From Candidatus Krumholzibacteriota bacterium (lineage in GTDB: Bacteria > Krumholzibacteriota > Krumholzibacteriia > LZORAL124-64-63): a stretch of DNA of 64,000 nt. Shown here in pieces: positions 47,389-64,000 of the stretch. Numbering within the stretch: the stretch's first letter is position 1; each line of letters opens with the position of its first letter. The translations under genes were made by a program, and so were the position numbers. The notes under the pieces are model-generated. The model searched no databases. It had not been told where the DNA came from and saw only the letters and a program-made list of their open reading frames with translations. The DNA is taken from contig JAKLEB010000001.1 in the NCBI GenBank assembly GCA_022711765.1, forward strand, positions 724,694-788,693, given 5' to 3'.

Positions 47389-47418
47389 CCCCCCTGCTCC
47401 ATCACTGTGGCGTCGCCG

Positions 47419-47443
47419 GGCCCCGCGGTCGTACCGCGGGGCC
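47419..47443 (+). terminator. hairpin terminator after cheW
   Basis: ggccccgcgg-tcgta-ccgcggggcc, a 10 bp perfect inverted repeat followed by tttcgtcgt. It lies 30 nt after the cheW stop and 20 nt before the next start. Confidence 0.55.
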
Positions 47444-47463
47444 TTTCGTCGTATCATGGTGGC

Positions 47464-49410: not shown

Positions 49411-51749
49411 CGCACGAGGGTGATCTTGAGGATCGCCTGGCCGCCCGGTCCGGCCGCGCGGACCCAGTACACGCCGCTCGCGCAGTCGCGCCCGCGATCG
49501 TCGCGACCGTTCCAGACCTCGCGGTATCGCCCGCCGGGCCGGAAGCCGTCGGCCAGCGCGCGGACCTGCCGCCCCGCGGCGTCGTGGATGGCGAGGCGGA
49601 CCGTTCCCGCGGCGGGGACCGTGAAGTAGATCGAGGCATGCGGGTTGAAGGGGTTGGGGACGCAGGGTCCCAGACGCAGCGCGGTCGCGTCAGGGACGTC
49701 GGTGGTCGAGCCGGCGATCGCGAAGACCGCGCTCTGATCCCAGCCGAGATTGCCGGCCGCGTCGCGGGCCAGCGCCCGCAGGCAAGCGCTGGCGCAGGCG
49801 AGGTCGGGCACCGTCCACGCCGCGCTGCCGTTCGCGGCGAGGCCGGTCAACGCCGTCGGCGCCCAGTGCTCGCCGCCGTCGCAGCTCAGCTCGAGGTCGA
49901 CCGCGACGACGGCGACGTTGTCGGCCGATTGCCAGGCGACCGTCACGACGGCGCCGGGTTCGAGCACCGCGCCCGCCGGCGGGCCCGCGCTCCACAGGAC
50001 TCCGGGCCCGTAGCGATCGCGCAGCGCGAAGACGCCGCTCTGGGCGACGCCGGCGTTGCCCTCGGGGTCGCGCGCCGTGACCCGCACCCGCAACGCCTCG
50101 CCCGGCACCGCGCCGAGGCTGCCGGTCCAGGTCCCCGCGTTCGCGAGGTTCCGCGCCAGGACCACCGGGTAGGTCGCGCCGCCGTCGCGGCTGAGGTGGA
50201 GGTCGACGGCGACGACGCCGCTCGCGTCCGTGGCCGTCCAGCGCACCGCCTGCGGATCGCCGAGAGTCCCGGCCTCGCCCGCGGCAGGCTGCAGGACGGA
50301 GACCGCGGGCGGCGTCTGGTCGAGGTCCACGACGCCGATCGCGACGGTGATGGTCGCCGGGTCGCGGGGCGCCAGGACATCGCGCACGTCGACGTCGGTG
50401 CGGGCGCCTCCGTTGGTCCGCGACGCCGGCAGCGTCGTCGCGGCGAAGCGCACCGCGCCGCTCGAGCCGGGCCAGGGATCGCCCGCGTCGCCGCGGTTCG
50501 CGCCGACCTGGTCCAGGCCGTCGGCCTGCTCCAAGGCGATCCCGGCGATCGGGCCCGCGTTGACCTCGTTCAGCGCCCGCGCGGCCGCGATCACCGACCC
50601 GTCGACGTGCCAGATCAGGAGGCCCGCTGCGGGGAGCGACGCGTCGAAACCGGTCCGCCGCCGGTTCTCGACCAGGAAGAGCTCCCCCGCAGCCATGTCC
50701 GGATCCCGGACCACGAGCACGTGGCCGGCCGGCAGGGTGACCGGGCCGTCCTCGCGCACGTCCACGACCGGCCCCCAGCCGAGGTCTCGCCGGCTCCAGG
50801 CGCACGGCAGCGACGGCGACGACGGCGTCCGCCCGTCGCCCCCCCAGCTGCCGGTCCCCATGAGCCCCCAGCCGCCGATGCCGGCGCCGCCGCCCACCGT
50901 GTCATAGAGGTCGGGCAGGCCCAGGACGTGGCCGTACTCGTGGCAGATCACGCCGATCTCGATCGCGCCGCCCGCGCAGCTCAGCTCGGGCACCAGGACG
51001 TAGTCGTCGACCTTGATGAAGCCGCCGCCCGCCCGCGCGGTCGCCGTGACGTAGGCGCCGTAGCCCCAGCCGGCGAGGAAGAAGCAATGGCTCCAGAGCT
51101 CGCTCGAACCGCATTCGCCGCCCTTGCCGGCGTGCATCACGACGACGCAGTCGACGTAGCCGTCGTCGTCGCCGCTGTTCGGCGCGCCGTCGGGACCGTC
51201 GTCGTCGTAGCGGCCCCAGTCGAAGCCCTGGACGTCGGCCGCCGCCACGACGTCGTACACGAAGCGGCCGGCGTTGTCGGGCGCGGCCCACACGTCCATG
51301 CCGTTGTGGTCGCCTGCGTAGTCGCCGACCGCGCGCGGTGCGCGCTTCCAGTCGATCACCTCGCCCACGACCTCGAGGGCGCCCCCGCTCGCCGCGAGGT
51401 AGTAGTCGCGGACGGAGTTCGTCCCGGTGAACCGCGCCTGCAGGGTCGCCTTCGGGATCGTGACCGCGCGGTCGCTGAATCCGCCCGGGATCACGAGGAG
51501 GCGCCTCGTGTCGGTCGCGCCCTTGTCACCGCCGGCGCCGACCGCCAGCCGCGACGGGAAGCCTGGGCGCGGGCCGGTCCAGCGCTCGAGCGCGGACGGC
51601 AGCGTCGCGCCCGAACCGGGGCGCGGCGGCGCGATGGCGAGGCCAGGCTGTGCGCCCGCCGCGGCGAGCGCCATCAGCGCCGCGCTGCAGAATGCGCGTG
51701 CACGGGCCGCTCGCTTGCGGTGGCCGCCTCGCACAACCGATTGCGACAT
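49407..51749 (-). CDS. M6-family (immune inhibitor A-like) metalloprotease with Ig-like repeats and C-terminal FlgD-Ig/T9SS-like sorting domain
   Basis: 780 aa. Signal peptide. HEYGHVLGLPDLYD, the M6 HExxHxxGxxD signature. Repeated beta-sandwich segments. C-terminus CVPNPFNPHASIYFTV...VRLAIHDAAGRQV...GVYWVRAAG...KITLVR. Confidence 0.75.
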   Translation of the reverse strand: MSQSVVRGGHRKRAARARAFCSAALMALAAAGAQPGLAIAPPRPGSGATLPSALERWTGPRPGFPSRLAVGAGGDKGATDTRRLLVIPGGFSDRAVTIPKATLQARFTGTNSVRDYYLAASGGALEVVGEVIDWKRAPRAVGDYAGDHNGMDVWAAPDNAGRFVYDVVAAADVQGFDWGRYDDDGPDGAPNSGDDDGYVDCVVVMHAGKGGECGSSELWSHCFFLAGWGYGAYVTATARAGGGFIKVDDYVLVPELSCAGGAIEIGVICHEYGHVLGLPDLYDTVGGGAGIGGWGLMGTGSWGGDGRTPSSPSLPCAWSRRDLGWGPVVDVREDGPVTLPAGHVLVVRDPDMAAGELFLVENRRRTGFDASLPAAGLLIWHVDGSVIAAARALNEVNAGPIAGIALEQADGLDQVGANRGDAGDPWPGSSGAVRFAATTLPASRTNGGARTDVDVRDVLAPRDPATITVAIGVVDLDQTPPAVSVLQPAAGEAGTLGDPQAVRWTATDASGVVAVDLHLSRDGGATYPVVLARNLANAGTWTGSLGAVPGEALRVRVTARDPEGNAGVAQSGVFALRDRYGPGVLWSAGPPAGAVLEPGAVVTVAWQSADNVAVVAVDLELSCDGGEHWAPTALTGLAANGSAAWTVPDLACASACLRALARDAAGNLGWDQSAVFAIAGSTTDVPDATALRLGPCVPNPFNPHASIYFTVPAAGTVRLAIHDAAGRQVRALADGFRPGGRYREVWNGRDDRGRDCASGVYWVRAAGPGGQAILKITLVR

Positions 51750-51841
51750 CTCGCGCTACGCTCCCTGGTCACGCACCGCGCGGTGCGGTCCTGCACGGTC
51801 GGCAGATCGTGCCGGCGACCGGTGCAAGATGCGCGCCCGGG

Positions 51842-54064
51842 TCAGTCGACCGGGTGCAGGGGCGCGAAGCGCGGCAGGATATGCTTGCGGCCGTGGTCGA
51901 GGAACTCGACGGTGACCTCGAGGTCGTCGCCCGCTCCCTCGACCCGCACGACGGTGCCGGCGCCGAAGCTCGCGTGCACCACCGTCTGCCCCTCGTAGAA
52001 CGGCGACACCTGGGCGACGTCGCGGTCCCAGCTCGACGCGGGGGAGCGCGCGCGGCGCCCGGCGATCGCGGACGCCGAATAGCGGTCGGCGTCGGCCGAG
52101 GCGGTCCTTGGCGGCGGCAGCCGCCAGCCGTGGTCGATCTGGCGGCGCTCGCAGAGCTCCGCGGGGATCTCGCCGAGGAACCGCGACGGCAGGCTGTCCT
52201 CGTAGGCGCCGTAGCGGCGGCGGCGCGCGGCGTGCAGCAGGTAGAGGCGGGTGCGCGCGCGGGTCAGGGCGACGTAGAAGAGACGGCGCTCCTCCTCCAC
52301 GCCGGCCGCGGTGTCGCTGCTCGTCGCGTGCGGCAACAGGTCGTCCTCGCAGCCGGTCACGACGACCACGGGGAATTCCAGGCCCTTGGCCGTGTGCACG
52401 GTCATCAGGCGGACGGCGCCCTCGCCGTCGCGGATCGCGTCCTGGTCGGCCACGAGCGCGATCTGTTCGAGGAACTGGACCAGCGTGCCGCCGTCCGCCG
52501 CCTCGTGGAAGGCGTGGGCGCCGTTGAGCAGCTCGGCGACGTTCTCGAGGCGGCCGAGAGCGGTCTCGGGCTCGTCGTCGCGCAGGAACGCCTCGTACTG
52601 GATGTCGGCGATGATGCGTTCGAGCAGCGCCGGCACCGGCTTGCCATCGGCGGCGTCGCGGCGCCAGGCGGCGAGCTGGCCCAGGAACTGGAGCACGCGC
52701 TGGGCGGCCGCGGGCCCGAGCGCGTCGCGCAGCAGGTCCGACCGCATGACGAGATCGCCGGCCGCGATCGCGTGCTCGCGGGCGCAGGCCAAGAGGCGGG
52801 ACACGGTCGTGTCGCCGATCTTGCGCTTCGGCTGGTTGATGATCCGCTGCAGCGAGACCTCGTCGGCGGGATTCGCGGTGAGCTTGAGGTAGGCCAGCAG
52901 ATCGCGGATCTCGCGCCGCTCGTAGAACTGGACGCTGCCCACGACCTGGTGGGGCACGCGCGCGCGGCGGAGCGCGTCCTCCAGCAGGCGCGACTGCGCG
53001 TTCGTGCGGTACATCACCGTGATGTCGCCGCGCTCGCGGCCGAGCGACTGCTCGCGCCGGACGATCTCCACGACCCGCGCCGCCTCGTCCTCGGCGTCCA
53101 GGTGCTCCTCGACGGAGATCGGGTCGCCGCGGGCGGCCTCGGTCCAGAGGTTCTTGCCCTTGCGGCGCTTGTTGTTGGCGATCAGCGCGTTGGCCGCGTC
53201 GAGGATGATCCCGACCGAGCGGTAGTTCTGTTCGAGCCGGTAGAGGTGCGTGCCCGGGAAGTGCTGCTCGAACTCCAGCATGTTCTCCACGCGCGCCCCG
53301 CGCCAGCCGTAGATCGACTGGTCGTCGTCGCCGACGACGAAGACATTGCCGTGCACGCTGCTCAACAGGCGGACCAGCAGCAGCTGCAGCGCGTTCGTGT
53401 CCTGGAACTCGTCGACGAGCACGTGGCGGAACTTGCCGGCGTACAGATCGCGGACGTCGTCGCAGGTCTCGAGCAGATGGACGGTCTCGAGGATGAGGTC
53501 GTCGAAGTCGACGGCCTTGCACGCGCGCAGGGCCTTCTGGTAGCCCTCGTAGACCTTGACGTAGGTCTCCTCGACGAAGGTCTTCGCCTTGCTGCGAGCC
53601 TGCTCGGGCGAGTCGTCCTCGTTCTTCCAGGTGCTGATCGCCGCGCGCGCAGCCGGGATCGCGAACTGCTTCGCGTCCACGTTCAGGTCGGCGAAGACGT
53701 TCTTCAGGAGGCGTTTCTGGTCGTCCGTGTCGTAGATCGCGAAGTCGCGGGCGAGGCCGAGGCGGTCGGCGTGGCTGCGCAGGATGCGGGCGCCGGTCGC
53801 GTGGAAGGTGCCGATCCAGAACGGCGCGTTGGTCTCGCCGACCAGGGTCGCCACCCGCTCCTTCATCTGGTTGGCGGCCCGGTTGGTGAAGGTGTAGGCG
53901 AGGACCTGCGACGGATAGACGCCGTGCTCGAGGAGCCAGGCGACGCGCGTGGTGAGGACCCGCGTCTTGCCCGAGCCCGCGCCGGCGACGACGAGGACCG
54001 GACCGTCGGGCGCGGTGACGGCGGCGCGCTGGGCGGAGTTGAGGGACTCGAGGAGGTCGGTCAC
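51842..54064 (-). CDS. ATP-dependent DNA helicase, UvrD/PcrA family
   Basis: 740 aa. Motif I AGAGSGKT, motif II DEFQDTN, motifs III-VI in order. Confidence 0.9.
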   Translation of the reverse strand: MTDLLESLNSAQRAAVTAPDGPVLVVAGAGSGKTRVLTTRVAWLLEHGVYPSQVLAYTFTNRAANQMKERVATLVGETNAPFWIGTFHATGARILRSHADRLGLARDFAIYDTDDQKRLLKNVFADLNVDAKQFAIPAARAAISTWKNEDDSPEQARSKAKTFVEETYVKVYEGYQKALRACKAVDFDDLILETVHLLETCDDVRDLYAGKFRHVLVDEFQDTNALQLLLVRLLSSVHGNVFVVGDDDQSIYGWRGARVENMLEFEQHFPGTHLYRLEQNYRSVGIILDAANALIANNKRRKGKNLWTEAARGDPISVEEHLDAEDEAARVVEIVRREQSLGRERGDITVMYRTNAQSRLLEDALRRARVPHQVVGSVQFYERREIRDLLAYLKLTANPADEVSLQRIINQPKRKIGDTTVSRLLACAREHAIAAGDLVMRSDLLRDALGPAAAQRVLQFLGQLAAWRRDAADGKPVPALLERIIADIQYEAFLRDDEPETALGRLENVAELLNGAHAFHEAADGGTLVQFLEQIALVADQDAIRDGEGAVRLMTVHTAKGLEFPVVVVTGCEDDLLPHATSSDTAAGVEEERRLFYVALTRARTRLYLLHAARRRRYGAYEDSLPSRFLGEIPAELCERRQIDHGWRLPPPRTASADADRYSASAIAGRRARSPASSWDRDVAQVSPFYEGQTVVHASFGAGTVVRVEGAGDDLEVTVEFLDHGRKHILPRFAPLHPVD

Positions 54065-54165: not shown

Positions 54166-54594
54166 TCAGCGCAGGAGCACCGCCTTCGTGGTGCGGATCG
54201 CGGACTCCGTGGTCAGGCGCACGAGGTACGCGCCCGACGGGAGGGCGCGGCCGGCGTCGTCCGTGCCGCGCCAGCTGAGGATGTGGCGGCCGGCGGGGCG
54301 GGGGGTGTCGAGGAGCGTGACCAGGCGGCGGCCGCGGAGGTCGTGGATGGTGACGGTGGCGTGGGTCGGGCACGGGAGATCGAAGGAGATCGTCGTTGCC
54401 GGGTTGAAGGGGTTGGGGGTGGCGGGGTGGAGGATGATGGCTGCGGCCGCCACGCCAACGGGTTCCTCCGGCCCCTCTGGGTGATCAACCGGCAGAATGT
54501 CGTGGCAATCGACCGGGAGAAGGTGACGGACCGCAGGCGAGGTAGACCTCTCCATCGAACTCGCGGATACGGATCTCCGAGTAGTCCGGCACAT
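54166..54594 (-). pseudogene. orphan FlgD-Ig/T9SS-like C-terminal sorting domain without signal peptide or passenger domain; probable gene remnant
   Basis: 142-aa ORF whose last ~85 aa match the sorting domains of the M1 and M6 proteases (ATPNPFNPATTISFDLP...VTIHDLRGRRLV...GAYLVRLTT...KAVLLR). The N-terminal 55 aa are Arg/Ser-rich with no signal peptide. Upstream DNA is the AT-rich promoter of the HNH gene. Confidence 0.35.
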
Positions 54595-54777: not shown

Positions 54778-55908
54778 ATGTCCTTCGTACCAGACGACTT
54801 CCGCCCCGGTCTGTCCGCCACCGAGGTCGACCGCGCCCTGCGCGGCGCCGTGTCGGCCTACGACCGCGCCCGCCGCAACGTCGCCCTCTGGTTCACCGAC
54901 GCCCTCGAGCGCGGCCTCTACCGCGACCTGGGCCACGCCAGCATGGAGATCTACGCCCGCGAGGGTCTCGGCTTCTCCCCCGGCCGCACGCGACAGTTCC
55001 TCGCCCTCGCCCGCGACCTGCGCCGGCTGCCGCACCTGCGCGCCGCGGTCACGGACGGGCGCCTCGGCTGGACCAAGGCGCAGGAGGTGGCGCGGGTGGT
55101 GGCGCCGGCGAGCGAAGCGGCGTGGGTCGAGCGCGCCGTCGCGTTGCCGCGGGACGAGCTGCGGCGCGAGGTGGCGACCGCGCGGGCGCGGGCGCGCGGT
55201 GCGCGGCTCGCGGCGCGGGGCAAGGCCGCGGGCCAGCTGGAGTCGTCGACCACCCGTGCGACGTCGACCCGCGGCGACGGATCGTCGCGCGCGGCGGCCC
55301 CCGCAGCCGCGCCGGCGACCATCCCGCCGACCACGATCGCGATCCAGCTCGACGCCCTCGAGCTCGCCCGCTTCGACGCCCTCGTCACGGCCGCGAGGAG
55401 ATCCGGCGCCGTCGCCGCCGACGCGACGCGCGCCGAGATCGTGCTCTCCGGACTCGCCGCCCTTACGAAAACTCCGCAGCGCGTACGCCGCGGACGTGGC
55501 GTCGGCCGCACGCACGGCAGCGCAAGCTGTCAGTATAACGGCGCGCGCCACCTTGCCCCGGCCGCCACGGTGATCGTGCAGCGATGTCCGGAGTGCGACG
55601 CCGCCTTCGCGCTCACGACCGCGGGACCCAAGCGGCTCGACCGCGCCGCGGACGCCGCGCTCGCCTGCGACCACGTCGCGCGGGACGCGCGCGGGCACAA
55701 CCGCAGCGCGGTCCCGCCGGCCGTCCGGCGGCAGGTGCTCGATCGCGACGGGCATCGCTGCACGACAGCGGGTTGCGATAACACGCGCTTCCTAGAGGTC
55801 CATCACGTCGTGCCCAGAGCGCAGGGAGGGACCAACACGACGGATAACCTGACGACGTTGTGCGCGCGGTGCCACCGGTTCGCGCACGAGCGGGCCCCCG
55901 CCCCCTAG
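54778..55908 (+). CDS. HNH endonuclease with N-terminal DUF222-like domain (actinobacterial 13E12-repeat type)
   Basis: 376 aa. C-terminal HNH motif C..C...H..HH.....GG.N..DNL..LC..CH, preceded by an Ala/Arg-rich helical domain. Stop overlaps the convergent Omp85-fusion gene by 4 nt. Confidence 0.75.
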   Translation: MSFVPDDFRPGLSATEVDRALRGAVSAYDRARRNVALWFTDALERGLYRDLGHASMEIYAREGLGFSPGRTRQFLALARDLRRLPHLRAAVTDGRLGWTKAQEVARVVAPASEAAWVERAVALPRDELRREVATARARARGARLAARGKAAGQLESSTTRATSTRGDGSSRAAAPAAAPATIPPTTIAIQLDALELARFDALVTAARRSGAVAADATRAEIVLSGLAALTKTPQRVRRGRGVGRTHGSASCQYNGARHLAPAATVIVQRCPECDAAFALTTAGPKRLDRAADAALACDHVARDARGHNRSAVPPAVRRQVLDRDGHRCTTAGCDNTRFLEVHHVVPRAQGGTNTTDNLTTLCARCHRFAHERAPAP

Positions 55909-58900
55909 AAATCCGGTCCGATCGAGAAGTGGAACACGCTGCCGTCGACGTGGCGCAGGTCGGTCCGCCAGGCCCAGTCGAACTTGAGCGGCAGCCAGAA
56001 CACGTTGGCGCGCAGGCCGAAGCCGAAGTCGCCGCGGAGGTCGCCGAACGCCCCGTCGTCGAAGAACTGGACCTCGTCGGTCCAGGCGCAGCCGGCGTCG
56101 AAGAAGACGGCGCCGCCGATGCCCGTGAGGCCCCACTGGCCGGGCCAGCCGAAGATCAGGTAGTCGACGAAGGGCAGGCGGTACTCGAGGCTCGCGAGGG
56201 CCATCTTGGTGCCGGCGAGGTTGTCGAGGGTCTGGTAGTCGTAGTAGCGGTAGCCGCGGAGGGTCCAGGGGCCGCCGATCACGAAGCCGCGCGGATCCTC
56301 GCCCGCCGAGTGGGCGTAGGTGAGGCGCAGGGCGAGGCTGTTGCGCCGCAGCGGCAGCCAGTATTTGCGGAGGTCGCCGACGAAGTTGAAGCGGTCGAGG
56401 CTGCTGTCGGAGAGCGGCAGGCCCTTGGCGACGCTCAGCGACCAGCGGCTGCCGGCCACGGGGCCGTGCAGGCCGTACAGCGCGTTGTCGTGGACGAAGC
56501 TGAGCGCCGGTTGCAGGAGGCGGCTCCGCCGCTTGGCGACCGGCACCAGGAAGCCGAACTCGTCGAAATCGTAGTCGGTGCGGTCGCTGTTGAGGATCTC
56601 CACATCGAAATCGACGCGCTCGAAGACCGACAGCGGGTAGCTCGCGCGGCCGAAAAATCCGTAGTTGCGCTCCTTGAAGAGGGTCTCGTCGGTCAACAGC
56701 TCGCCCACGCTGGTGATGACCGAGTTGTAGTAGTTGTTGTACAGGAACGCGCCGGCCGACAGGTCGACGCGGCGCTTGAGGAAGGTGTAGGCTGCGGCGA
56801 GGTCGCTGTTGTCGACGGCGCCGTAGAAATTCACCAGGAAGTCGAGGCGGCGGTCGCCGAGGTCGTCGGTCAGCGTGATGACGTTGGCGAAGCCGAGGCC
56901 GCCCGCGCTCGTCCAGTACACGGCGCCGCCGGCCCCGGCGCGGGTCGCGTCGAGGCGGAAGCGGGGGCGGTAGCGTTCGACGAGGCCGATGCGGTCGGGG
57001 TCGATCCGCACGGTGTCGGGGGGACCGGCGCGCGTGACGAGCTGCGGCGGTTCGATCACGACCGGGCCCGGCGCCGTGCCGCCCGGCGTCCGCGCCGACC
57101 AGCTGCCGCGGAACTGGTCGGCGGCGTAGAGATCGTAGCCTGCGTTATGGAACGCGCTGAAGACGAGGCGGTCGCCGGCGACCGCGTAGGTGAGATGCTG
57201 CAAGCCGCCGAGGAGGTTCGTCAGCGGGCGGTCGCTGGCCACGGCCGAGCCTGTCGAATCGAGCGCCACGAGCGACAGGTTGTCGATGCCGTTCGCGCCG
57301 TCGACCACGACGAGCGCGCGATCGTCGATCCACACGGGGTCGCGGCGGCGGTCGCGGGACGCGAAGAGGCGGCTCCGCGCGCCGTCAAGCGCGAGGACCT
57401 CGACCGCCGGCGGCGGCGCCGTCCGGGTCGTGTCGAGGGCCGCCTCGCCCACGAGGCGCGCCTGGCGCAGGCGCTTGGCGCCGTCCGCCAGCAGCTCGAT
57501 CTCGAAGGCGACCTCGGCCAGCGGATTGAACGAGAAGGCGAGCCGCGAGCCGTCCGGCGACCAGGCCGGCGAACTCTCGTCGCCGGCGTCGTCCGTCAGG
57601 CGCACGAGGCGCGCGCCGTCCGGCAGTCGGCGCGGCGGCGCGGCGGCGGCGACCCCGAGGCTGTCGAGCGCGCCGGGGACCATCTCCACGAGGTAGAGAT
57701 CGGTGCGGCCGCGGTCGGTGCCCACGAGGGCGACCAGGCGGCCGTCGGGCGACCAGGCCGGATCGGCGGCGACGTCGAGCTCGAGATCCCAGCTGCGGGT
57801 CACGTCGCCGTTCGCCGCGTCGATCGTGTGCAGCGTCTCCCGGTTGCCGCTCTTCGCGACCAGGACGACCTCGCGGCCGTCCGGCGACCAGCCCAGGCCC
57901 GAGCGGAAACTGTGGAAGCTCTCGAAGCGGCTCGCGCGCATGCTGCGGCCGAGGCGACGGATCACCTGGCCGTCGATGGCCGACAGGAGATAGAGGTCGA
58001 TCAGACCGTCGCGGTCGGTGAAGCAGGCGACCAGGTCGCCGTCGGGATTCAGGGCGGGCCGACCGTAGAACGACGCCTCGTCCGTCTCGACGCCGGTCAG
58101 CGGCCGCGAGATGTCCTCCATCTGCTCGAGGTCGCTGAAGCCCGGCCAGTAGCGCTGGCGGAGGGACCGGTGGTAGAGCTCCTCGAATTCCTCCATCGTC
58201 AGACCGTAGGTGAGCGCGAGCGCGCGGTCGACGCTGCGCACGCGGCCGACGGTGCGCCAGAACTCGTTGAGGCGCTCGGCGCCGTAGCGATCGGAGAGCA
58301 GGCGCATCGCCGCCTGGCCCTGCTTGTAGACCAGGTAGCCGCCGACCCGCTCGAGCGGCTGCAGGTAGTCGTTGATCGTGGCGTCGCGGATGACCATGTC
58401 GGCGTTCGCGTCCCAGCCCGAGCTGAGCCACTCGGCCACGCCCTCGGCGAACCACAGGGGGATATTGAAGAAGGCGTTGCGGCCGAGGTCGACGCTGCGG
58501 GAGCCGAAGGCCATGTCGAACATGAAGACGTGGACCAGCTCGTGGCGGATCACGTGCACGAGGTCGGCGTGCGAGCCGTTGTACGGCAGGACCATGCGGT
58601 TGCGGAACGGCTCGGAGAAGCCGCCGGTGCCCTCGCCGATGAGGTAGTCGGAGATGTTGGTCTGCGCGAATTCGGCGTGGCTCGAGTAGAGGATCAGCGG
58701 CGTGCGCAGCGGCAGATCGCGGTCGAGGCGATCGGCGTACTCCTTGTAGGCGCGCTCGGCGATGATCGCCGCGCGGAACGCGAGCTCCTCGGCGCCGTCG
58801 TGGAAGTGCAGGTCGAAGTGCGGAGTCGTGAGCACGCGCCAGTCGTGGTCGCCGGTCTGGACCTTGTTCTTGCCGTACCGCTGCGCCTGCGCCGGTACGG

Positions 58901-58979
58901 CGCAGGCGATCGCGCACAGCACGACCACGAGCGCTCTAGTACTCGAAACGATACTTGAGATCGAGATTGTACGTCGCAT
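55905..58979 (-). CDS. Omp85-superfamily outer-membrane beta-barrel protein whose periplasmic region is an HExxH zinc-peptidase-like domain plus a PD40/TolB-type beta-propeller instead of POTRA domains
   Basis: 1024 aa. Signal peptide. HELVHVFMFD...WFAEGVAEW around residue 150. At least three WSPDG PD40 repeats between residues 330 and 480. C-terminal ~380 aa with the Omp85 L6 RGY motif (GGPWTLRGYRYYD) and terminal aromatic signature ...FHFSIGPDF. The 5' end overlaps the tamB-like gene by 44 nt. Confidence 0.7.
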   Translation of the reverse strand: MRRTISISSIVSSTRALVVVLCAIACAVPAQAQRYGKNKVQTGDHDWRVLTTPHFDLHFHDGAEELAFRAAIIAERAYKEYADRLDRDLPLRTPLILYSSHAEFAQTNISDYLIGEGTGGFSEPFRNRMVLPYNGSHADLVHVIRHELVHVFMFDMAFGSRSVDLGRNAFFNIPLWFAEGVAEWLSSGWDANADMVIRDATINDYLQPLERVGGYLVYKQGQAAMRLLSDRYGAERLNEFWRTVGRVRSVDRALALTYGLTMEEFEELYHRSLRQRYWPGFSDLEQMEDISRPLTGVETDEASFYGRPALNPDGDLVACFTDRDGLIDLYLLSAIDGQVIRRLGRSMRASRFESFHSFRSGLGWSPDGREVVLVAKSGNRETLHTIDAANGDVTRSWDLELDVAADPAWSPDGRLVALVGTDRGRTDLYLVEMVPGALDSLGVAAAAPPRRLPDGARLVRLTDDAGDESSPAWSPDGSRLAFSFNPLAEVAFEIELLADGAKRLRQARLVGEAALDTTRTAPPPAVEVLALDGARSRLFASRDRRRDPVWIDDRALVVVDGANGIDNLSLVALDSTGSAVASDRPLTNLLGGLQHLTYAVAGDRLVFSAFHNAGYDLYAADQFRGSWSARTPGGTAPGPVVIEPPQLVTRAGPPDTVRIDPDRIGLVERYRPRFRLDATRAGAGGAVYWTSAGGLGFANVITLTDDLGDRRLDFLVNFYGAVDNSDLAAAYTFLKRRVDLSAGAFLYNNYYNSVITSVGELLTDETLFKERNYGFFGRASYPLSVFERVDFDVEILNSDRTDYDFDEFGFLVPVAKRRSRLLQPALSFVHDNALYGLHGPVAGSRWSLSVAKGLPLSDSSLDRFNFVGDLRKYWLPLRRNSLALRLTYAHSAGEDPRGFVIGGPWTLRGYRYYDYQTLDNLAGTKMALASLEYRLPFVDYLIFGWPGQWGLTGIGGAVFFDAGCAWTDEVQFFDDGAFGDLRGDFGFGLRANVFWLPLKFDWAWRTDLRHVDGSVFHFSIGPDF

Positions 58980-61900
58980 CGCCCTGGTACTCGTCGATCC
59001 GGCGGCGGATCTCCGTCTGCAGCAGCAGGTGGTTGGTGATCTGGTACTCGATCAGCAGGTCCCGGTCGTTCTGGTTCACGCCCTGCGCGTACGTGATGTA
59101 GAGGTCGGTGCCGACATACTTGCCAACGCCGATCAACGGGTCGAGGCCGGTCTCGCCGCTCGTCTGCTGGCGCTGGATCTGCTCGATCTCGACCGTGTCG
59201 AAGATACCGATCTCCGAGGCGATCTCGCGCTCGAGGATGTTCAAGCCGGCCGAGATCGACGCGTTCGCGAGGACGTCGCTGTCGCCCTGCGCGTCCGGAT
59301 AGGGCGAGAGGCCGAGCAGCATGCGCTCGATCGCCGCGCGCGGATAGCCGCTCTCGCTCGAATAGCTGATCTCCATGGCATCGGCCGGGCCGGTCGCGTG
59401 GACGGTGATCAGCTCGACCACGCTCGCGCCCTGGACCTGGCTCGGCAGGCGCACGCGGGTCTCGGCGTCGATGTCGACGTTGGGCACCACGCCGACCGCC
59501 CGGCTGAAATCGAGGCGGCCGCGCACGACCTTGAAGGTGTTGTTGAACACCGGCAGGCGGCCGTTGTCGATGTCCATGCCGCCCTTGATGATCATCCCGT
59601 CGGCGTCGCGCACGACGGTGACGTCGCCGGAGAGGTCGAGATCCATCGTGCGGTTGACGATGCGGGCGGTGCGCGGCGGACCGCTGACCCGCACGTCCGC
59701 GAGCCAGTTCGGCGCGACCGTGCCGAGGGTCGGATCGAGGGTGCCCTCGGTGGCGGCGAAGTTGCCCGTGTAGCGCCCGCGGATCAACTCGAAGTCGCCG
59801 GTGAAATGAGGCACCAGGGTGCTGTCCGGACCGACGGGCACGCCGGTGAGGCGGCCGTTGTCCGTCCGGACCAGGGCCCGCAGGTCGGGGATCGAGGCCA
59901 CCAGGAATCGATCGGCGGCGAACGCGATGTCCCAGGTCTTCAGCACGAGTCCCGCGAAGGTCACGGAGCCGGAGCCCGTGAAGACGCCGCGCTGGCCTTC
60001 CTGGCCGCGCAGCTCCTGGACGATCAGCAGATCGTCCTGGAAGACCCCGCGCGCGCGGCAGTCATGGTAGACCTCCTCGTTGCCGCGCAGGACGAACGCG
60101 ACGTCATCGACGGCGATCGTGCCCTGGTAGACGGGGTGCGAGAGCGGGCCGGACACGATCAGGTCGGCCTGGCCGCGGCCGGAGCAACGGCTGAACGCGT
60201 TGGTCGCGTCCAGAAGCGGCGCCAGGTCGGTTCCGGCGGGCACGACGAGGTGGCCGAAGAACGGGCCGTCCGGGGGCGTCGTCGGCGCCGCCAGCAGGTC
60301 AAAGCTCAGCGGCAGCTCGAGGCGGCCCTCCAGGCGGAGTTCGTCCTGGTTGCCGCGCAGATCGCCGAACGCGAGCTGCCCGTCCTCGGCGCGGACGGTG
60401 CCGGTGAGCCGATCCAGGTGCAGCCACTGGAAGTGGAAGGGCGCGCTGTCGAGATCGCCGGTCACCAGCGGGTCCTCGCTCGTCCCGGCCAGGTGCAGGT
60501 CGCCGCGGAACCGGCCCGCGAGCCGGTCGAGCGCCGGCAGCTGGAATTGCTCGAGGAACGCCCAGTCGCCGTCCGGGATCTCGATGTCGAGGTCCAGCGA
60601 CGCGCCCGGCCAGAACTCGCGGAGGCTGGCGCCCCGGTGGCTCACCGTGCCGGCCAGACGGACCCTGCCGAACTCGCTGGCCACGTCGACCGCATCGATC
60701 GTCACCGTGCCGCGGCGGAGGTGCGCGGCCACCCTGAGCGAATCGACGCGGGCGAGCGGGAACCTCGCGTCCACGAGGTCGCCGCGCAGGGTGACCGTGG
60801 GCGAATCGGGCCGCCCGCCGACCTCCACGAGAGCGGTCGCGCGGCCGCCCGTCTGCACCGACCGGCGCAGCAGCGGGTCCAGCAGGTCGAGATCGAAGTT
60901 CGTCGCCTCCAGGCGACCGTTGAGCAGATCGTCGGCGGCGCGGTAGTCGACGGACGCGGTGAAATCGCCGTGGTCGGAGACGAGGCGCAAACGCGGGACC
61001 TGCACGAGGCCGTCGCCGACGGCGGCCGCCACGGCGGCGTCGGTGCGCCATTCGTTGCCGGCGAAGTCGATCGCGAGCCCGGCGACATTCAGATCGGCCC
61101 GCCCCGGCGACAGGTCGGCGCGGCCGCGGCAGGCGACGACCGTATCGCCGTGGACCGTGCGCAGGGAGTCGACCTCGACGCTGGTCGGGCCGACCCGGGT
61201 CCACAGGAGGTAGCGGCCGAGCGGCACGCCGCCGAGCGCGAAGCCGTCGCCCTCGGTCGCGGCGCTCAGGGACCAGTCCTCGCCCAGGACCCGCTCGGCG
61301 AGCACGTCCGCGGTGCCGGTCGTCGCGGTCAACGTGCCCACGGCGAGGTCGGCGAACTCGAGGGTGCCGGCGGCCTCGAGCGCATCGAGCGGCCCGTCGA
61401 GCGCGACCTGCCCGGCGAGCCGGCCGCCGAGCGCCGGCCAGCCCCAGCCGGGCGGGACGCTGCGCAGGTCGGCGCAGGCGACGTCGAGCCAGCCGGCGAA
61501 GACCTCGTCGCGATCGCTGGTGCCGGCCAGTCGCGCCCGCAGCGCGCCGTGGCTCAGGTCGACGGAGCGGAAATGGAGCGAGTCCCCCCGGGCCCAGACA
61601 TCGACCCGGCACGTATCGAAGGGCATGATCTCGATCTCGCCGTCGACGATCAGCCCGCTCACCCGCGTCGCCTCGTCGGCGGTCGTGTGCACGATCTCGA
61701 GCCGGCCGTGGCCCGCGGTCCGCGGCAGGTCCGCGACCTCCGGGATCAGGCCGGCGCGCAGGTCGAGATCGCGCGCATCGCCGGCGATCGTGATGACCGT
61801 GCCGGCTGGGTCGCGGGCGTCGACGCGCAGCGTCCCGTCGAACCAGGCGCCGCCGACCCCGCCGCGCAGCACCGCGAACTCGGCCACCCCGCCCGAGACC

Positions 61901-62799
61901 ACCGCCTCGCCCCGGACGGCGTCGAGGTTCCACTGCTCGAAGCGCCCGGAGAAATCGCCGGCGAAGCGCACGGTATCGTCGTGGGCCGTGACCGTGCAAT
62001 CGACGTCGCCGGCCGCGTCGAAGTCGAGGGACAGCCCGACGAGATCGTTCACGGCCGCGACCGAAACGCCGCGCGCGGCCACGGCCACCGCCACGCCGGC
62101 CTCGGTGACGCCGCCGTCGACGGTCACGCGGCCGTCGTTCCACAGCGCGCTGAGGTCCCTCGCCCGCACGCCGTCTTTCGCGATGGTGAGCTCGCCGTAG
62201 AGCCGGTCCAACGTCGACCTGCGGGTGTCCCAGCGCACCGAGCCGCCCCGCGAGACCAGCCGGAGGCGCTCGCCGTCGCCACGGATCCCGCCGCGCCACC
62301 CGACGTCCTGCAGGAGCTCGCGCTGCCGGCCGTCGGCGTCGGCGATCTCGATCCGCGCGTTGCGGACATCGACGAGATCCACCTCGATCCGCGGGATCGC
62401 CCGCGGCTCGTCGTCCGCGGCCGCCGCCGGCTCGGTCGCCGGCGGCTGGTTGTGATAGACCTCCACCCCGCGCATCGCCAGCCGACGCAGCCGCAGCCGG
62501 GGTCCCAGGACCTCCCGCAGGCGGAAGTCGATCTCGAGCGTGTCCACCGCGACGAGCGTCAGGCCGCCCCGTTCGCCGCGGACGGTCAGGGTGGCGTCGT
62601 AGGCGTCCAGGCCGCCGAACGCGCGCACGTGGTAGGCGCCGACCCGCAGATGGCCGTTCAGGCGCGCTTCGAGCTGCCGGTTCACGAGGCGGGTCGCGAA
62701 CGGCGCCAGGACCTGCGGATTGCGGTCGAGCAGGACCACTCCCCCCGCCAGCAGCAGGAGGGTGAGGATGGCCGGCCAGCGGATGCGTCGTCGCGCCAT
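58936..62799 (-). CDS. tamB: TamB-like translocation and assembly module protein (AsmA/DUF490 family)
   Basis: Internal Met of ORF 58936..63669 (MARRRIRWPAILTLLLLAGGVVLLD signal-anchor). 1288 aa of repetitive beta-rich sequence. C-terminal DUF490-like region (...GKYVGTDLYITYAQG...DLKYRFEY). Located 2 nt downstream of an Omp85 gene. Confidence 0.8.
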   Translation of the reverse strand: MARRRIRWPAILTLLLLAGGVVLLDRNPQVLAPFATRLVNRQLEARLNGHLRVGAYHVRAFGGLDAYDATLTVRGERGGLTLVAVDTLEIDFRLREVLGPRLRLRRLAMRGVEVYHNQPPATEPAAAADDEPRAIPRIEVDLVDVRNARIEIADADGRQRELLQDVGWRGGIRGDGERLRLVSRGGSVRWDTRRSTLDRLYGELTIAKDGVRARDLSALWNDGRVTVDGGVTEAGVAVAVAARGVSVAAVNDLVGLSLDFDAAGDVDCTVTAHDDTVRFAGDFSGRFEQWNLDAVRGEAVVSGGVAEFAVLRGGVGGAWFDGTLRVDARDPAGTVITIAGDARDLDLRAGLIPEVADLPRTAGHGRLEIVHTTADEATRVSGLIVDGEIEIMPFDTCRVDVWARGDSLHFRSVDLSHGALRARLAGTSDRDEVFAGWLDVACADLRSVPPGWGWPALGGRLAGQVALDGPLDALEAAGTLEFADLAVGTLTATTGTADVLAERVLGEDWSLSAATEGDGFALGGVPLGRYLLWTRVGPTSVEVDSLRTVHGDTVVACRGRADLSPGRADLNVAGLAIDFAGNEWRTDAAVAAAVGDGLVQVPRLRLVSDHGDFTASVDYRAADDLLNGRLEATNFDLDLLDPLLRRSVQTGGRATALVEVGGRPDSPTVTLRGDLVDARFPLARVDSLRVAAHLRRGTVTIDAVDVASEFGRVRLAGTVSHRGASLREFWPGASLDLDIEIPDGDWAFLEQFQLPALDRLAGRFRGDLHLAGTSEDPLVTGDLDSAPFHFQWLHLDRLTGTVRAEDGQLAFGDLRGNQDELRLEGRLELPLSFDLLAAPTTPPDGPFFGHLVVPAGTDLAPLLDATNAFSRCSGRGQADLIVSGPLSHPVYQGTIAVDDVAFVLRGNEEVYHDCRARGVFQDDLLIVQELRGQEGQRGVFTGSGSVTFAGLVLKTWDIAFAADRFLVASIPDLRALVRTDNGRLTGVPVGPDSTLVPHFTGDFELIRGRYTGNFAATEGTLDPTLGTVAPNWLADVRVSGPPRTARIVNRTMDLDLSGDVTVVRDADGMIIKGGMDIDNGRLPVFNNTFKVVRGRLDFSRAVGVVPNVDIDAETRVRLPSQVQGASVVELITVHATGPADAMEISYSSESGYPRAAIERMLLGLSPYPDAQGDSDVLANASISAGLNILEREIASEIGIFDTVEIEQIQRQQTSGETGLDPLIGVGKYVGTDLYITYAQGVNQNDRDLLIEYQITNHLLLQTEIRRRIDEYQGDATYNLDLKYRFEY

Positions 62800-62801
62800 G
62801 A

Positions 62802-64000
62802 TCAGAACACGTGCCCCAGCGAGAAGTGGAGCCGCCAGCGGTCGTCGACCAGGGTCTTCTCGAGGCTCTGGTACCGGGCCCGCTTCAGGGGGAAACCGAG
62901 GTCGAGCCGGAACGGCCCGAACGGCGTGTCCAGCCGCAGGCCGGTCCCGACACTGTAACGATAATCCCAGATCTTGGTGCTCGTCGGATCTTCCGGGTCG
63001 CCCGGGTACGAACGCAAGCGAAAGGCGTCGAGCGTGATGTCGTCGAGGTCCTCCCAGACGTTGCCGCCGTCGCAGAACAGGACGCTGCTGAGGTGCCAGC
63101 GTGAGAGCCAGGGCAGCGGGAAGCGCCACTCGGCGTTCGTGATGAGCTGGTAGTTGCCGCCGCGGGCCGGATCGTCGGGCAGCGGGACGTCGCTCCCCCA
63201 GCCGATCTCCGCCTGCTCCTCGGGGTCGGTGATCTGCGGACCGAGGCTGTTCTCGCGATAGCCGCGGACGCTGTAGGCCCCGCCCGCGAAGAAGCGGTCG
63301 TCGTACGGGACGCCGTCGCTGCCGAGCTCGCGCGAATCGCCGTAGGGACGGACCGCGCCGAGGCGCACGCGGGCCGCGACGACGCCGCCCAGCAACGGCC
63401 GGTAGTCCTGCAGGGAGCCGCTCCACTTCAGGAAGCTGTTGTCGCCGCCGAGCAGCCCGCCGGCCAGTTCGAGCTGGCTCGTGAAGTACTGTCCGCGGAC
63501 CGGGTTGAAGGCGTCGTCGCGTCCCTCGCGGAACAGCGAGTGGATGACCGAGCGCGTCGTGCTGGCCGTGACGCCGGCCGCCTCGAAATCCTCCTGCAGA
63601 TCGGACGGCGCCAGCGGATGGACCGCGGGATCGACCGTGCGCAGGCTGAGGTCCAGACGGTTGGTCCACAGCAGGTCGTCGCGGCGCTGGGTGCCGACCA
63701 GGATGCCGTAGATCGTCTGGATCAGGCCCGATTCGCCGCGCGTCGCGCGCTTGGCGTAGACGTTCACGTCCAGCGGGTAGTCGCGGCCGAACAGGTGCGG
63801 ATTGTCGTAGAGGACGTCCGCGCGGTAGTTGAGGTCGCCCTCGGCGAAGATGCGCGGCTCGCCGATGATCTCCTCGACGTTCCAGTAGCCACGCAGCCGC
63901 AGCTGCAGGCGCCGGCCGCTCCCCCAGAGGTTGTTGTGGCCCCAGGCCACCATCGCGCGGATCCGCTCGCGGCTGCCGAAGCCCGCGCCGAACTCGTAGA
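62802..64000 (-). CDS. Omp85-family outer-membrane protein (TamA/BamA-like); C-terminal ~390 aa of barrel, N-terminus beyond the window end
   Basis: Barrel motifs RFFAGGAYSVRGYREN (L6 VRGY motif) and C-terminal ...RLHFSLGHVF. No stop in frame up to 64000, so the gene continues upstream. Confidence 0.8.
   Translation of the reverse strand, partial: YEFGAGFGSRERIRAMVAWGHNNLWGSGRRLQLRLRGYWNVEEIIGEPRIFAEGDLNYRADVLYDNPHLFGRDYPLDVNVYAKRATRGESGLIQTIYGILVGTQRRDDLLWTNRLDLSLRTVDPAVHPLAPSDLQEDFEAAGVTASTTRSVIHSLFREGRDDAFNPVRGQYFTSQLELAGGLLGGDNSFLKWSGSLQDYRPLLGGVVAARVRLGAVRPYGDSRELGSDGVPYDDRFFAGGAYSVRGYRENSLGPQITDPEEQAEIGWGSDVPLPDDPARGGNYQLITNAEWRFPLPWLSRWHLSSVLFCDGGNVWEDLDDITLDAFRLRSYPGDPEDPTSTKIWDYRYSVGTGLRLDTPFGPFRLDLGFPLKRARYQSLEKTLVDDRWRLHFSLGHVF

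Follow-up and report, generated by a model that had tools for sequence, protein, structure and literature searches.

In Escherichia coli, the last strand of TamB pairs with strand β1 of the TamA barrel, as seen by cryo-electron microscopy (PMC12800296). Operons in which TamB is joined with BamA have also been described and probably represent the ancestral state of TAM, the translocation and assembly module (Heinz, Selkrig, Lithgow et al. 2015, PMC4494059), and the TamB of Borrelia burgdorferi binds the POTRA domains of BamA (PMC5582053, PMC11361582). A WD40-like subfamily of the Omp85 proteins was catalogued by Heinz & Lithgow in 2014 and likened to a BamA–BamB fusion (PMC4104836); Table S3 of that study lists about 100 proteins with a BamA barrel, a TolB match and a ‘best aminopeptidase hit’ (1z5h, 4kxd, 4ar1, 3qnf). 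Also of relevance are PlpD, whose enzyme domain, once thought to be secreted, has been shown to be periplasmic (PMC11116518), and BepA, YcaL and LoiP, zinc metalloproteases that act at the β-barrel assembly machinery (BAM) (PMC13067283). The locus described here lies at the end of a 64,000-nt stretch of contig JAKLEB010000001.1, from a Candidatus Krumholzibacteriota bacterium (the whole stretch is referred to as the window), and comprises three minus-strand genes between positions 55905 and 64000, which on their sequence matches encode a BamA-type Omp85 protein (gene 1), a TamB (gene 2) and a WD40-like Omp85 protein in which a peptidase domain and a β-propeller are fused to the barrel (gene 3). 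Each part comes from a known family and the linkage of BamA with TamB is itself known; what is new is the conserved, coupled third gene.

The fusion protein encoded by the third gene was modelled with AlphaFold2 (AF2) from an alignment of 42 sequences, giving a mean predicted local distance difference test score (pLDDT) of 83.9 and a predicted template modelling score of 0.83, and its domains are listed in Table 1. When the peptidase domain was modelled alone (pLDDT 84), its Foldseek matches were M9-collagenase and M1-aminopeptidase catalytic domains (templates 4ar8, 4ar1, 3qnf and 1z1w; E 3.7e-5, TMq 0.57). His146, Glu147 and His150 of the HELVH motif, together with Glu179, Gly180, Ala182 and Glu183 in the context WFAEGxAEW, are invariant among 42 homologues reaching down to 38% identity, and the spacing of 29 residues between the second histidine and Glu179 seems to resemble that of the M9 collagenases. 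The propeller was recognized by the Pfam PD40 profile (E 5e-10), by comparison with TolB chains (E ~1e-14) and by Foldseek, which also matched it to TolB; in the AF2 model it consists of 24–25 strands arranged as six four-stranded sheets.

The barrel that follows had the barrels of BamA as its top Foldseek matches (E 3.5e-12, TMt 0.68) and retains the signatures of the family: in the loop-6 motif TLRGY (residues 906–910), Thr906 and Arg908 are invariant among the 42 homologues and Gly909 is found in at least 90% of the sequences, while in the C-terminal FHFSIGPEF both Phe1018 and Ile1020 are invariant; the β-signal of the barrel encoded in the window reads FHFSIGPDF. Taken with the peptidase residues, this motif pattern is as would be expected for an active gluzincin carried on a functional Omp85 barrel. 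The linker between propeller and barrel contains three further invariant residues (Gly665, Tyr670 and Asp677). No POTRA domain was matched in the fusion protein by Pfam or NCBIfam, and no POTRA fold was present in the linker of the AF2 model. Neither database matched a patatin domain, the enzyme domain of the type Vd/PlpD proteins, and the score against the TamA model NF047950 was 17.8 bits, compared with a cutoff of 625. As judged from these matches and the predicted fold, the protein is a member of the WD40-like Omp85 subfamily and thus already catalogued; the sequence-only reading of the window had recognized it as an atypical Omp85 fusion. We considered whether it might be a lipoprotein, given the cysteines in its signal peptide, and ruled this out, there being no lipobox and the cysteines not being conserved. 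A group of relatives at about 40% identity (1080–1170 aa) carries an insert of 60–120 residues, of low complexity and rich in acidic residues, proline and alanine, in the linker before the barrel (alignment columns ~700–870); the protein encoded in the window has no such insert.

The position at which translation of the fusion gene begins affects its overlap with tamB. In identical contigs, public gene callers start the gene at the GTG at 58928, which gives a protein of 1007 aa and a gap of 8 nt after tamB. However, only 58 nt lie between the tamB stop codon and the conserved mature N-terminus of the fusion protein (YGKNKVQ), too short for a normal signal peptide, those of its homologues being 23–45 residues long, and five close relatives likewise have an ATG at –44; we therefore favour the ATG at 58979, with which the start of the gene overlaps the 3′ end of tamB by 44 nt. 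Because this ATG is embedded in conserved codons of the TamB C-terminus (GAT-GCG), its own conservation is not independent proof. With either start, the two genes are tightly packed.

The window encodes residues ~292–689 of the gene 1 protein, that is its barrel domain, ending HFSLGHVF; the signal peptide and three POTRA domains are encoded beyond the window end. We recovered them by an exact-sequence look-up of the TamB, which placed the locus on metagenome-assembled source contigs of 2.06–2.16 Mb and allowed it to be extended (locus L001). The full protein, encoded at L001:7929–9998 after rseP, has 689 aa, comprises a signal peptide, POTRA domains and barrel, and matches Pfam Omp85 with E 8e-50 and POTRA with E 1.7e-17. 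Among the NCBIfam models it scored highest with TIGR03303 (BamA), at 240.9 bits over profile positions 149–731, as against 95.9 for TamL and 66.2 for TamA; the first of these values is below the equivalog cutoff of 297, and the TamA model NF047950 has a cutoff of 625. Comparison with solved structures gave the same order, with E 1.5e-27 for BamA chains and 3e-10 for TamA chains in the Protein Data Bank. Because the profile match begins at position 149, and because residues 27–326 align with BamA residues 165–460, which correspond to POTRA3–5, the protein possesses the equivalents of POTRA3–5 only, three domains rather than the five that are canonical for proteobacterial BamA. Its gene occupies the conserved bamA position downstream of rseP, in the order cdsA–dxr–rseP–(126-aa ORF)–bamA (ORF, open reading frame). 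The number of POTRA domains led us to consider that gene 1 might encode TamA; the better BamA scores and the position after rseP rule this out, and by its sequence the protein is a BamA-type Omp85 with a TamA-like number of POTRA domains. No further BamA, and no Omp85 gene outside the trio, was found in the 64-kb window.

The identification of gene 1 alters the earlier interpretation of the locus. The sequence-only reading had supposed this first barrel protein, for which it proposed a search for POTRA domains on an extended contig, to belong to a TAM pair; that it is a TamA is contradicted by the family scores, the structural matches and the uppS–cdsA–dxr–rseP–bamA position alike. It had also allowed that the gene might prove to be bamA in a bamA–skp–lpxD context, and this came half true, in that the gene is bamA but is not followed by skp and lpxD. 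Moreover, its premise that known TAM systems are two-gene tamA–tamB units was incomplete, given the BamA–TamB operons (PMC4494059) and the association of TamB with BamA in Borrelia (PMC5582053, PMC11361582).

The product of gene 2 begins MARRRIRWPAILTLLLLAGGVVLL, in which a hydrophobic stretch, read from the sequence, follows MARRRIRW and forms a hydrophobic anchor, and its C-terminus, YNLDLKYRFEY, closes with the β-signal-like KYRFEY. The DUF490 domain is matched by Pfam PF04357 over residues 930–1287 (E 6.8e-34), covering profile positions 3–381 of 381, and residues 1053–1262 match the solved TamB chain 23sp_B. The sequence-only reading had called the gene TamB-like and had named the lack of this domain as an outcome that would speak against its view; the gene is as it stated, except that the product has 1287 rather than 1288 aa, the latter figure having counted the stop codon. 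Both the length and the predicted N-terminal inner-membrane anchor fit those of TamB proteins (~1200–1300 aa). The score against NF047952, the NCBIfam equivalog for proteobacterial TamB, was 55 bits, far below the cutoff of 825, as is to be expected outside the Proteobacteria, and by its sequence we take the protein to be a distant orthologue of TamB.

Genuine genes in the window, which has a G+C content of ~70%, were recognized by a third-position GC content of at least 0.9, and all three of the minus-strand ORFs carry a strong coding signal by this measure (0.93–0.94). The first two are separated by 2 nt (TGA-tc-ATG). A consensus scan of positions 55905–64000 found no promoter-like or terminator-like sites, at the junctions or elsewhere, so that here, as with the coordinates, the gene order, the 2-nt gap and the 44-nt overlap, the earlier description of the three genes was borne out.

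The arrangement of the three genes is widely conserved. Relatives of the fusion protein gave 3362 scored matches, with source names that include Candidatus Krumholzibacteriia, Latescibacteria and ‘Gemmatimonadetes’ metagenome-assembled genomes; an identical copy of the protein is encoded on the 2.16-Mb contig. The peptidase domain gave 614 clusters at E ≤1e-30 among 1.84 billion representatives (at least 614 at 50% identity). Since this domain is nearly always N-terminal, at residues 20–50 of proteins of 900–1130 aa, the architecture is fixed and the family large. Tightly spaced bamA–tamB–fusion genes were found at ~60 loci, in genomes labelled as Krumholzibacteriota, Eisenbacteria or Latescibacterota. 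The order dxr–rseP–small ORF–bamA–tamB–fusion was present in all 22 genome loci (53–78% identity), wherever the contig extends far enough, and from rseP to the fusion gene it holds also in relatives at ~40% identity (L029, L030 and L113); at another locus (L031) only the tamB–fusion portion is visible. A further clade, which emerged from iterative hidden Markov model searches (jackhmmer) in 80 metagenome loci, lies at 32–37% identity and is labelled Candidatus Eisenbacteria by homology search; it keeps rseP–bamA–tamB–fusion without dxr beside rseP. The trio is therefore not a chance juxtaposition, and the comparison of synteny in related genomes that the sequence-only reading had proposed shows it to be kept across phylum-level lineages. 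A ‘DUF490-only’ TamB of 541 aa, paired with a fusion gene and lacking bamA upstream, in a record of Candidatus Latescibacterota labelled as a single 4.3-Mb sequence (CP070677.1), at first seemed to argue strongly that TamB and the fusion protein are a specific pair, but it proved to be an artefact, because a gap of 100 N (L112:8154–8253) truncates tamB and makes the upstream context (addAB) unreliable.

Spacing is conserved along with order. Of 27 loci, 26 have a gap of between –1 and 18 nt separating bamA from tamB; for tamB and the fusion gene the median over 44 loci is 13.5 nt, the extremes being an overlap of 62 nt and a gap of 269 nt. The fusion protein is under strong purifying selection: in each of 18 genome comparisons it was more conserved than BamA and TamB (means of 58, 54 and 46%, respectively), and its conservation was on a par with that of RseP.

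The genes around the trio were identified in the window and on the extended locus. The unit is closed by a convergent plus-strand gene for an HNH endonuclease, which overlaps the stop codon of the fusion gene by 4 nt. This gene is confined to the lineage of the window and one other locus (L009); elsewhere uvrD directly adjoins the fusion gene, and the HNH gene therefore looks inserted. In the window, both it and a small FlgD_ig gene are interposed between the fusion gene and uvrD. FlgD_ig-like domains occur also in the two peptidase genes beyond the helicase gene (Table 1), and in this lineage they are possibly a shared secretion or sorting tag. That a DNA-repair gene should be stably linked to a string of envelope genes was unexpected. 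On the other side, L001 carries the string rpsI–rpsB–tsf–pyrH–frr–uppS–cdsA–dxr–rseP–(126-aa ORF, on the other strand)–bamA, then tamB and the fusion gene. The bamA gene extends ~0.9 kb beyond position 64000, and the 126-aa ORF, on the opposite strand, lies ~0.1–0.5 kb upstream of its start. The ORF has a lipoprotein-type signal (LLALAGC) and no Pfam match; tblastn found it at 49–66% identity in every Krumholzibacteriota-type locus that reaches so far, but not in the Eisenbacteria-type loci. Its product might be an unrecognized BAM-associated lipoprotein.

Table 1. Features of the locus and its surroundings. Positions are those of the window unless L001 is given; residues are those of the fusion protein.
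Feature	Position	Strand	Basis or remarks
bamA, 3′ part (gene 1)	62802..64000 (ORF 62802-63998 on to window end, 398 codons)	-	Pfam Omp85, E 1.6e-50
tamB (gene 2)	58936..62799 (ATG 62799, stop 58936; 1287 aa)	-	Pfam PF04357
WD40-like Omp85 fusion gene (gene 3)	55905..58979 (ATG 58979, stop 55905; 1024 aa)	-	Pfam/NCBIfam; AF2
Signal peptide of fusion protein	residues 1-33		AF2 model
Peptidase domain, predicted gluzincin fold	58110..58847, about residues 45-290	-	α/β in AF2; Foldseek
HELVH zinc-binding/catalytic motif	58530..58544, residues 146-150	-	putative third ligand E179 in WFAEGVAEW
Six-bladed PD40/TolB-like β-propeller	57117..58082, about residues 300-621	-	Pfam PD40; AF2; Foldseek
Linker, ~70 residues	56901..57116, about residues 622-693	-	AF2; motif IGxVxxYxPRFxLD
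Omp85-type β-barrel, 16-strand	55908..56900, about residues 694-1024	-	Pfam Omp85 (PF01103), E 3.1e-13
HNH-endonuclease gene	54778-55908	+	376 aa; HNH domain residues 333-371 of its product
FlgD_ig-only ORF, small	near 54166-54594		
PcrA/UvrD-type helicase gene	51842-54064	-	same strand as fusion gene
Peptidase_M1 and Peptidase_M6 genes	47389-51755	+ and -, respectively	each with a FlgD_ig-like domain
126-aa ORF between rseP and bamA	L001:7445-7822	-	

The reading that we prefer, and to which we give about an even chance, is that the trio forms the distal part of a housekeeping envelope-biogenesis string, uppS–cdsA–dxr–rseP–(small lipoprotein gene)–bamA–tamB–WD40-like omp85–uvrD, the third member of which is a periplasm-facing protease anchored in the outer membrane. 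As far as the identities of the genes are concerned this is near-certain, whereas the functional part is tentative, a possibility that we would put somewhat short of probable. [quoted passage not shown] The barrel of the fusion protein would insert in the outer membrane, with the peptidase and propeller staying in the periplasm, tethered beneath it. The targets of the peptidase may be envelope proteins that are unfolded or have stalled, for which the propeller would be a substrate filter or docking platform; the propellers of the TolB, tricorn and prolyl-oligopeptidase/DPP-IV families bind partners or gate substrates. The periplasmic topology is inferred from the location of the N-terminus of strand 1 in the Omp85 barrels that have been studied, which is periplasmic, and from that of the enzyme domain of PlpD (PMC11116518), so that, by analogy, the fusion protein is most likely an outer-membrane-anchored, periplasm-facing protease. 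It would be expressed with BamA and TamB and would act beside BAM and TamB, of which it need not be a stoichiometric subunit, in a manner reminiscent of BepA at BAM (PMC13067283).

Several observations weigh against this reading. The peptidase domain of the fusion protein in the window scores 23.6 bits with Pfam Peptidase_MA_2, below the cutoff of 32.4, although its relatives score 32–41 bits, at or above the cutoff, and the WD40-like subfamily has been called not well characterized (PMC11116518) and is likewise uncharacterized in PMC11358297. At 43 of the 44 tamB-linked loci the functionally unrelated uvrD lies downstream of the fusion gene in the same orientation, often ~25 nt away. The link of the third gene is one of synteny alone, in uncultured lineages in which an unrelated gene is linked equally tightly, and since uvrD is as conserved downstream as tamB is upstream, linkage here does not by itself imply a shared function. 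In several lineages the shared gene order continues to gatCAB, an LTD-domain gene and meaB, much farther than a functional unit could plausibly reach. In addition, full-length members of the family at 28–33% identity make up a separate clade, in which no tamB lies at distances of up to 10 kb. At 18 of ~30 of these loci (L063–L111) the fusion gene is directly preceded, on the same strand, by a murA-type gene of ~425 aa, which belongs to the EPSP-synthase/MurA family (PF00275, E 1.6e-102) and was taken for murA because of its N-terminal sequence; the WD40-like Omp85 family thus has another conserved neighbourhood, distinct from the first. The clade is large, and the function of the fusion protein therefore cannot depend on an adjacent tamB. 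The clades were distinguished on a rough neighbour-joining tree, of which only the three-clade pattern was used, nine sequences (untrimmed stop-to-stop ORFs) lying on artefactually long branches.

Several of these observations favour the view that the trio is simply inherited gene order, an ancient and slowly rearranging cluster without any specific link, in which the fusion protein has its role elsewhere, for example in a peptidoglycan- or Tol–Pal-related process, to which its TolB-like propeller, and murA as its neighbour in other lineages, might point. The faithful linkage of uvrD, the continuation of synteny to meaB and the existence of the murA-linked clade all fit this view, as does one lineage (L048:1113–6388) that retains rseP–fusion–uvrD but has neither bamA nor tamB where they normally stand, which gives the impression that the two were cut out or moved. 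Unlinked neighbours of this kind have a parallel in E. coli, where rnhB and dnaE follow the lpx genes. Nevertheless, all three products are of outer-membrane-biogenesis type, two of them being Omp85 barrels, the trio persists where its upstream neighbours change (there is no dxr beside rseP in the Eisenbacteria-type loci), and the genes meet at junctions so short, or even overlapping, that co-translation is implied; on balance we think it unlikely that inherited order is the whole explanation. The linkage of uvrD and the absence of a nearby tamB from a whole clade do mean, however, that gene order alone cannot prove a complex, and synteny, which we had considered as proof of one, was downgraded once uvrD proved equally linked. 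The three-component outer-membrane module that the sequence-only reading had proposed accordingly stands as a coupled and conserved trio of genes, but not as a complex established by their order.

Another reading is a true three-component machine. In it, the POTRA-less barrel of the fusion protein would dock the C-terminal strand of TamB in a hybrid barrel, as an analogue of TamA or TamL, with the protease and propeller providing quality control and BamA acting separately or as a second partner. The C-terminus of TamB is β-signal-like (KYRFEY), the fusion barrel retains the loop-6 RG motif of the family, the pairing of the TamB strand with TamA β1 in E. coli (PMC12800296) requires a barrel but not necessarily POTRA domains, and the coupled tamB–fusion order, overlapping in the lineage of the window, is kept in two deep clades. 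However, the contacts of TamB extend to POTRA domains, in TamA and in BamA (PMC12800296, PMC11361582), and the fusion protein has none of these, while the three-POTRA BamA encoded directly upstream is already TamA-like in architecture; with the clade that lacks a neighbouring tamB and the example of uvrD, which shows that linkage here can be non-functional, such a machine seems to us improbable. More doubtful still is a more specific proposal for the Krumholzibacteriota, the Eisenbacteria and related candidate phyla, in which the WD40-like Omp85 would belong to an ancestral BAM–TAM supercomplex as its dedicated third subunit, its barrel receiving the C-terminal strand of TamB and its protease and propeller policing or processing what arrives. 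If this proposal were true, the protein would be a replacement for TamA/TamL with built-in quality control, and a first function would be at hand for an Omp85 subfamily unassigned since 2014. Least probable of all, and in our view very unlikely, is that the fusion protein is a dedicated substrate of BamA–TamB, as the sequence-only reading had suggested with regard to the TAM pair, or a self-exported protease assembled by them with its protease–propeller part displayed on the cell surface as a type V-like passenger. TAM does help complex outer-membrane proteins, autotransporters among them (PMC12800296, PMC11341756), fusions of enzymes to Omp85 barrels were formerly classed as type Vd secretion, and genes nearby in the window code for M1 and M6 peptidases that look secreted; but the type Vd paradigm has been overturned by the periplasmic location of the PlpD enzyme domain (PMC11116518), the fusion protein has no POTRA domain, and a 16-strand barrel whose loop-6 plug motif is intact is not likely to take as its passenger a folded six-bladed propeller together with a peptidase of 250 aa. 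For a protein more conserved than BamA, a core function is also a better fit than a nutritional or surface role.

The WD40-like proteins make up one of roughly ten Omp85 subfamilies and are widespread and strongly conserved, with no assigned function (PMC11116518). Searching the open-access literature, in which a paper available only by subscription could be missed, we found none that links a WD40-like Omp85 with tamB or gives the subfamily a function. Against this background, the coupled place of the gene behind bamA and tamB, together with a conservation exceeding that of BamA, offers a first contextual clue to a role in core outer-membrane biogenesis, and the locus, with its three-POTRA BamA, adds a data point for BamA–TamB, rather than TamA–TamB, as the ancestral arrangement. 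The clue that the third-gene linkage provides to the role of the WD40-like Omp85 proteins is a modest one.

The gene order in E. coli is rpsB–tsf–pyrH–frr–dxr–uppS–cdsA–rseP–bamA–skp–lpxD, and the upstream string rpsB–tsf–pyrH–frr–uppS–cdsA–dxr–rseP–bamA of L001 is in common with it. The two differ downstream, where tamB and the WD40-like Omp85 gene take the place of skp–lpxD–fabZ–lpxAB, and uvrD stands where E. coli has rnhB–dnaE. With the TamA–TamB systems of the Proteobacteria (PMC12800296) the locus shares a TamB-family protein and a three-POTRA Omp85 encoded directly upstream of it, but the upstream barrel scores as BamA rather than TamA and sits at the bamA locus after rseP, and a second barrel gene follows tamB. 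The resemblance to the BamA–TamB operons is closer, in that a DUF490 TamB lies tightly beside a BamA-type Omp85, in the order bamA then tamB, as in the Acidobacteria. Here, however, there is also a third Omp85-family gene coupled downstream, and the BamA has three POTRA domains, neither of which is mentioned in PMC4494059, PMC5582053 or PMC11361582; the terms WD40 and propeller do not occur in the text of PMC4494059.

The fusion protein itself resembles the WD40-like Omp85 proteins of PMC4104836 in its barrel, its TolB-like WD40/PD40 propeller, its predicted N-terminal M1/M9-like domain and its lack of POTRA domains, and the templates 4ar1, 3qnf and 1z5h/1z1w overlap with those of Table S3. 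That catalogue takes in cultured members of the Bacteroidetes, Chlorobi, Myxococcales, Vibrio and other groups, but not the candidate phyla considered here, and gives neither genomic context nor function. In PlpD (PMC11116518), too, a 16-strand Omp85 barrel carries an enzyme domain at the N-terminal side, although this enzyme is a patatin lipase and PlpD has one POTRA domain, whereas the fusion protein combines a putative zinc peptidase with a propeller and has none. BepA, YcaL and LoiP (PMC13067283) belong to the M48 family, with tetratricopeptide repeats, and are soluble proteins or lipoproteins that are neither fused to a barrel nor homologous to the fusion protein; the likeness is one of functional analogy, between periplasmic HExxH zinc proteases that carry a protein-interaction domain and may serve in the removal of stalled outer-membrane proteins.

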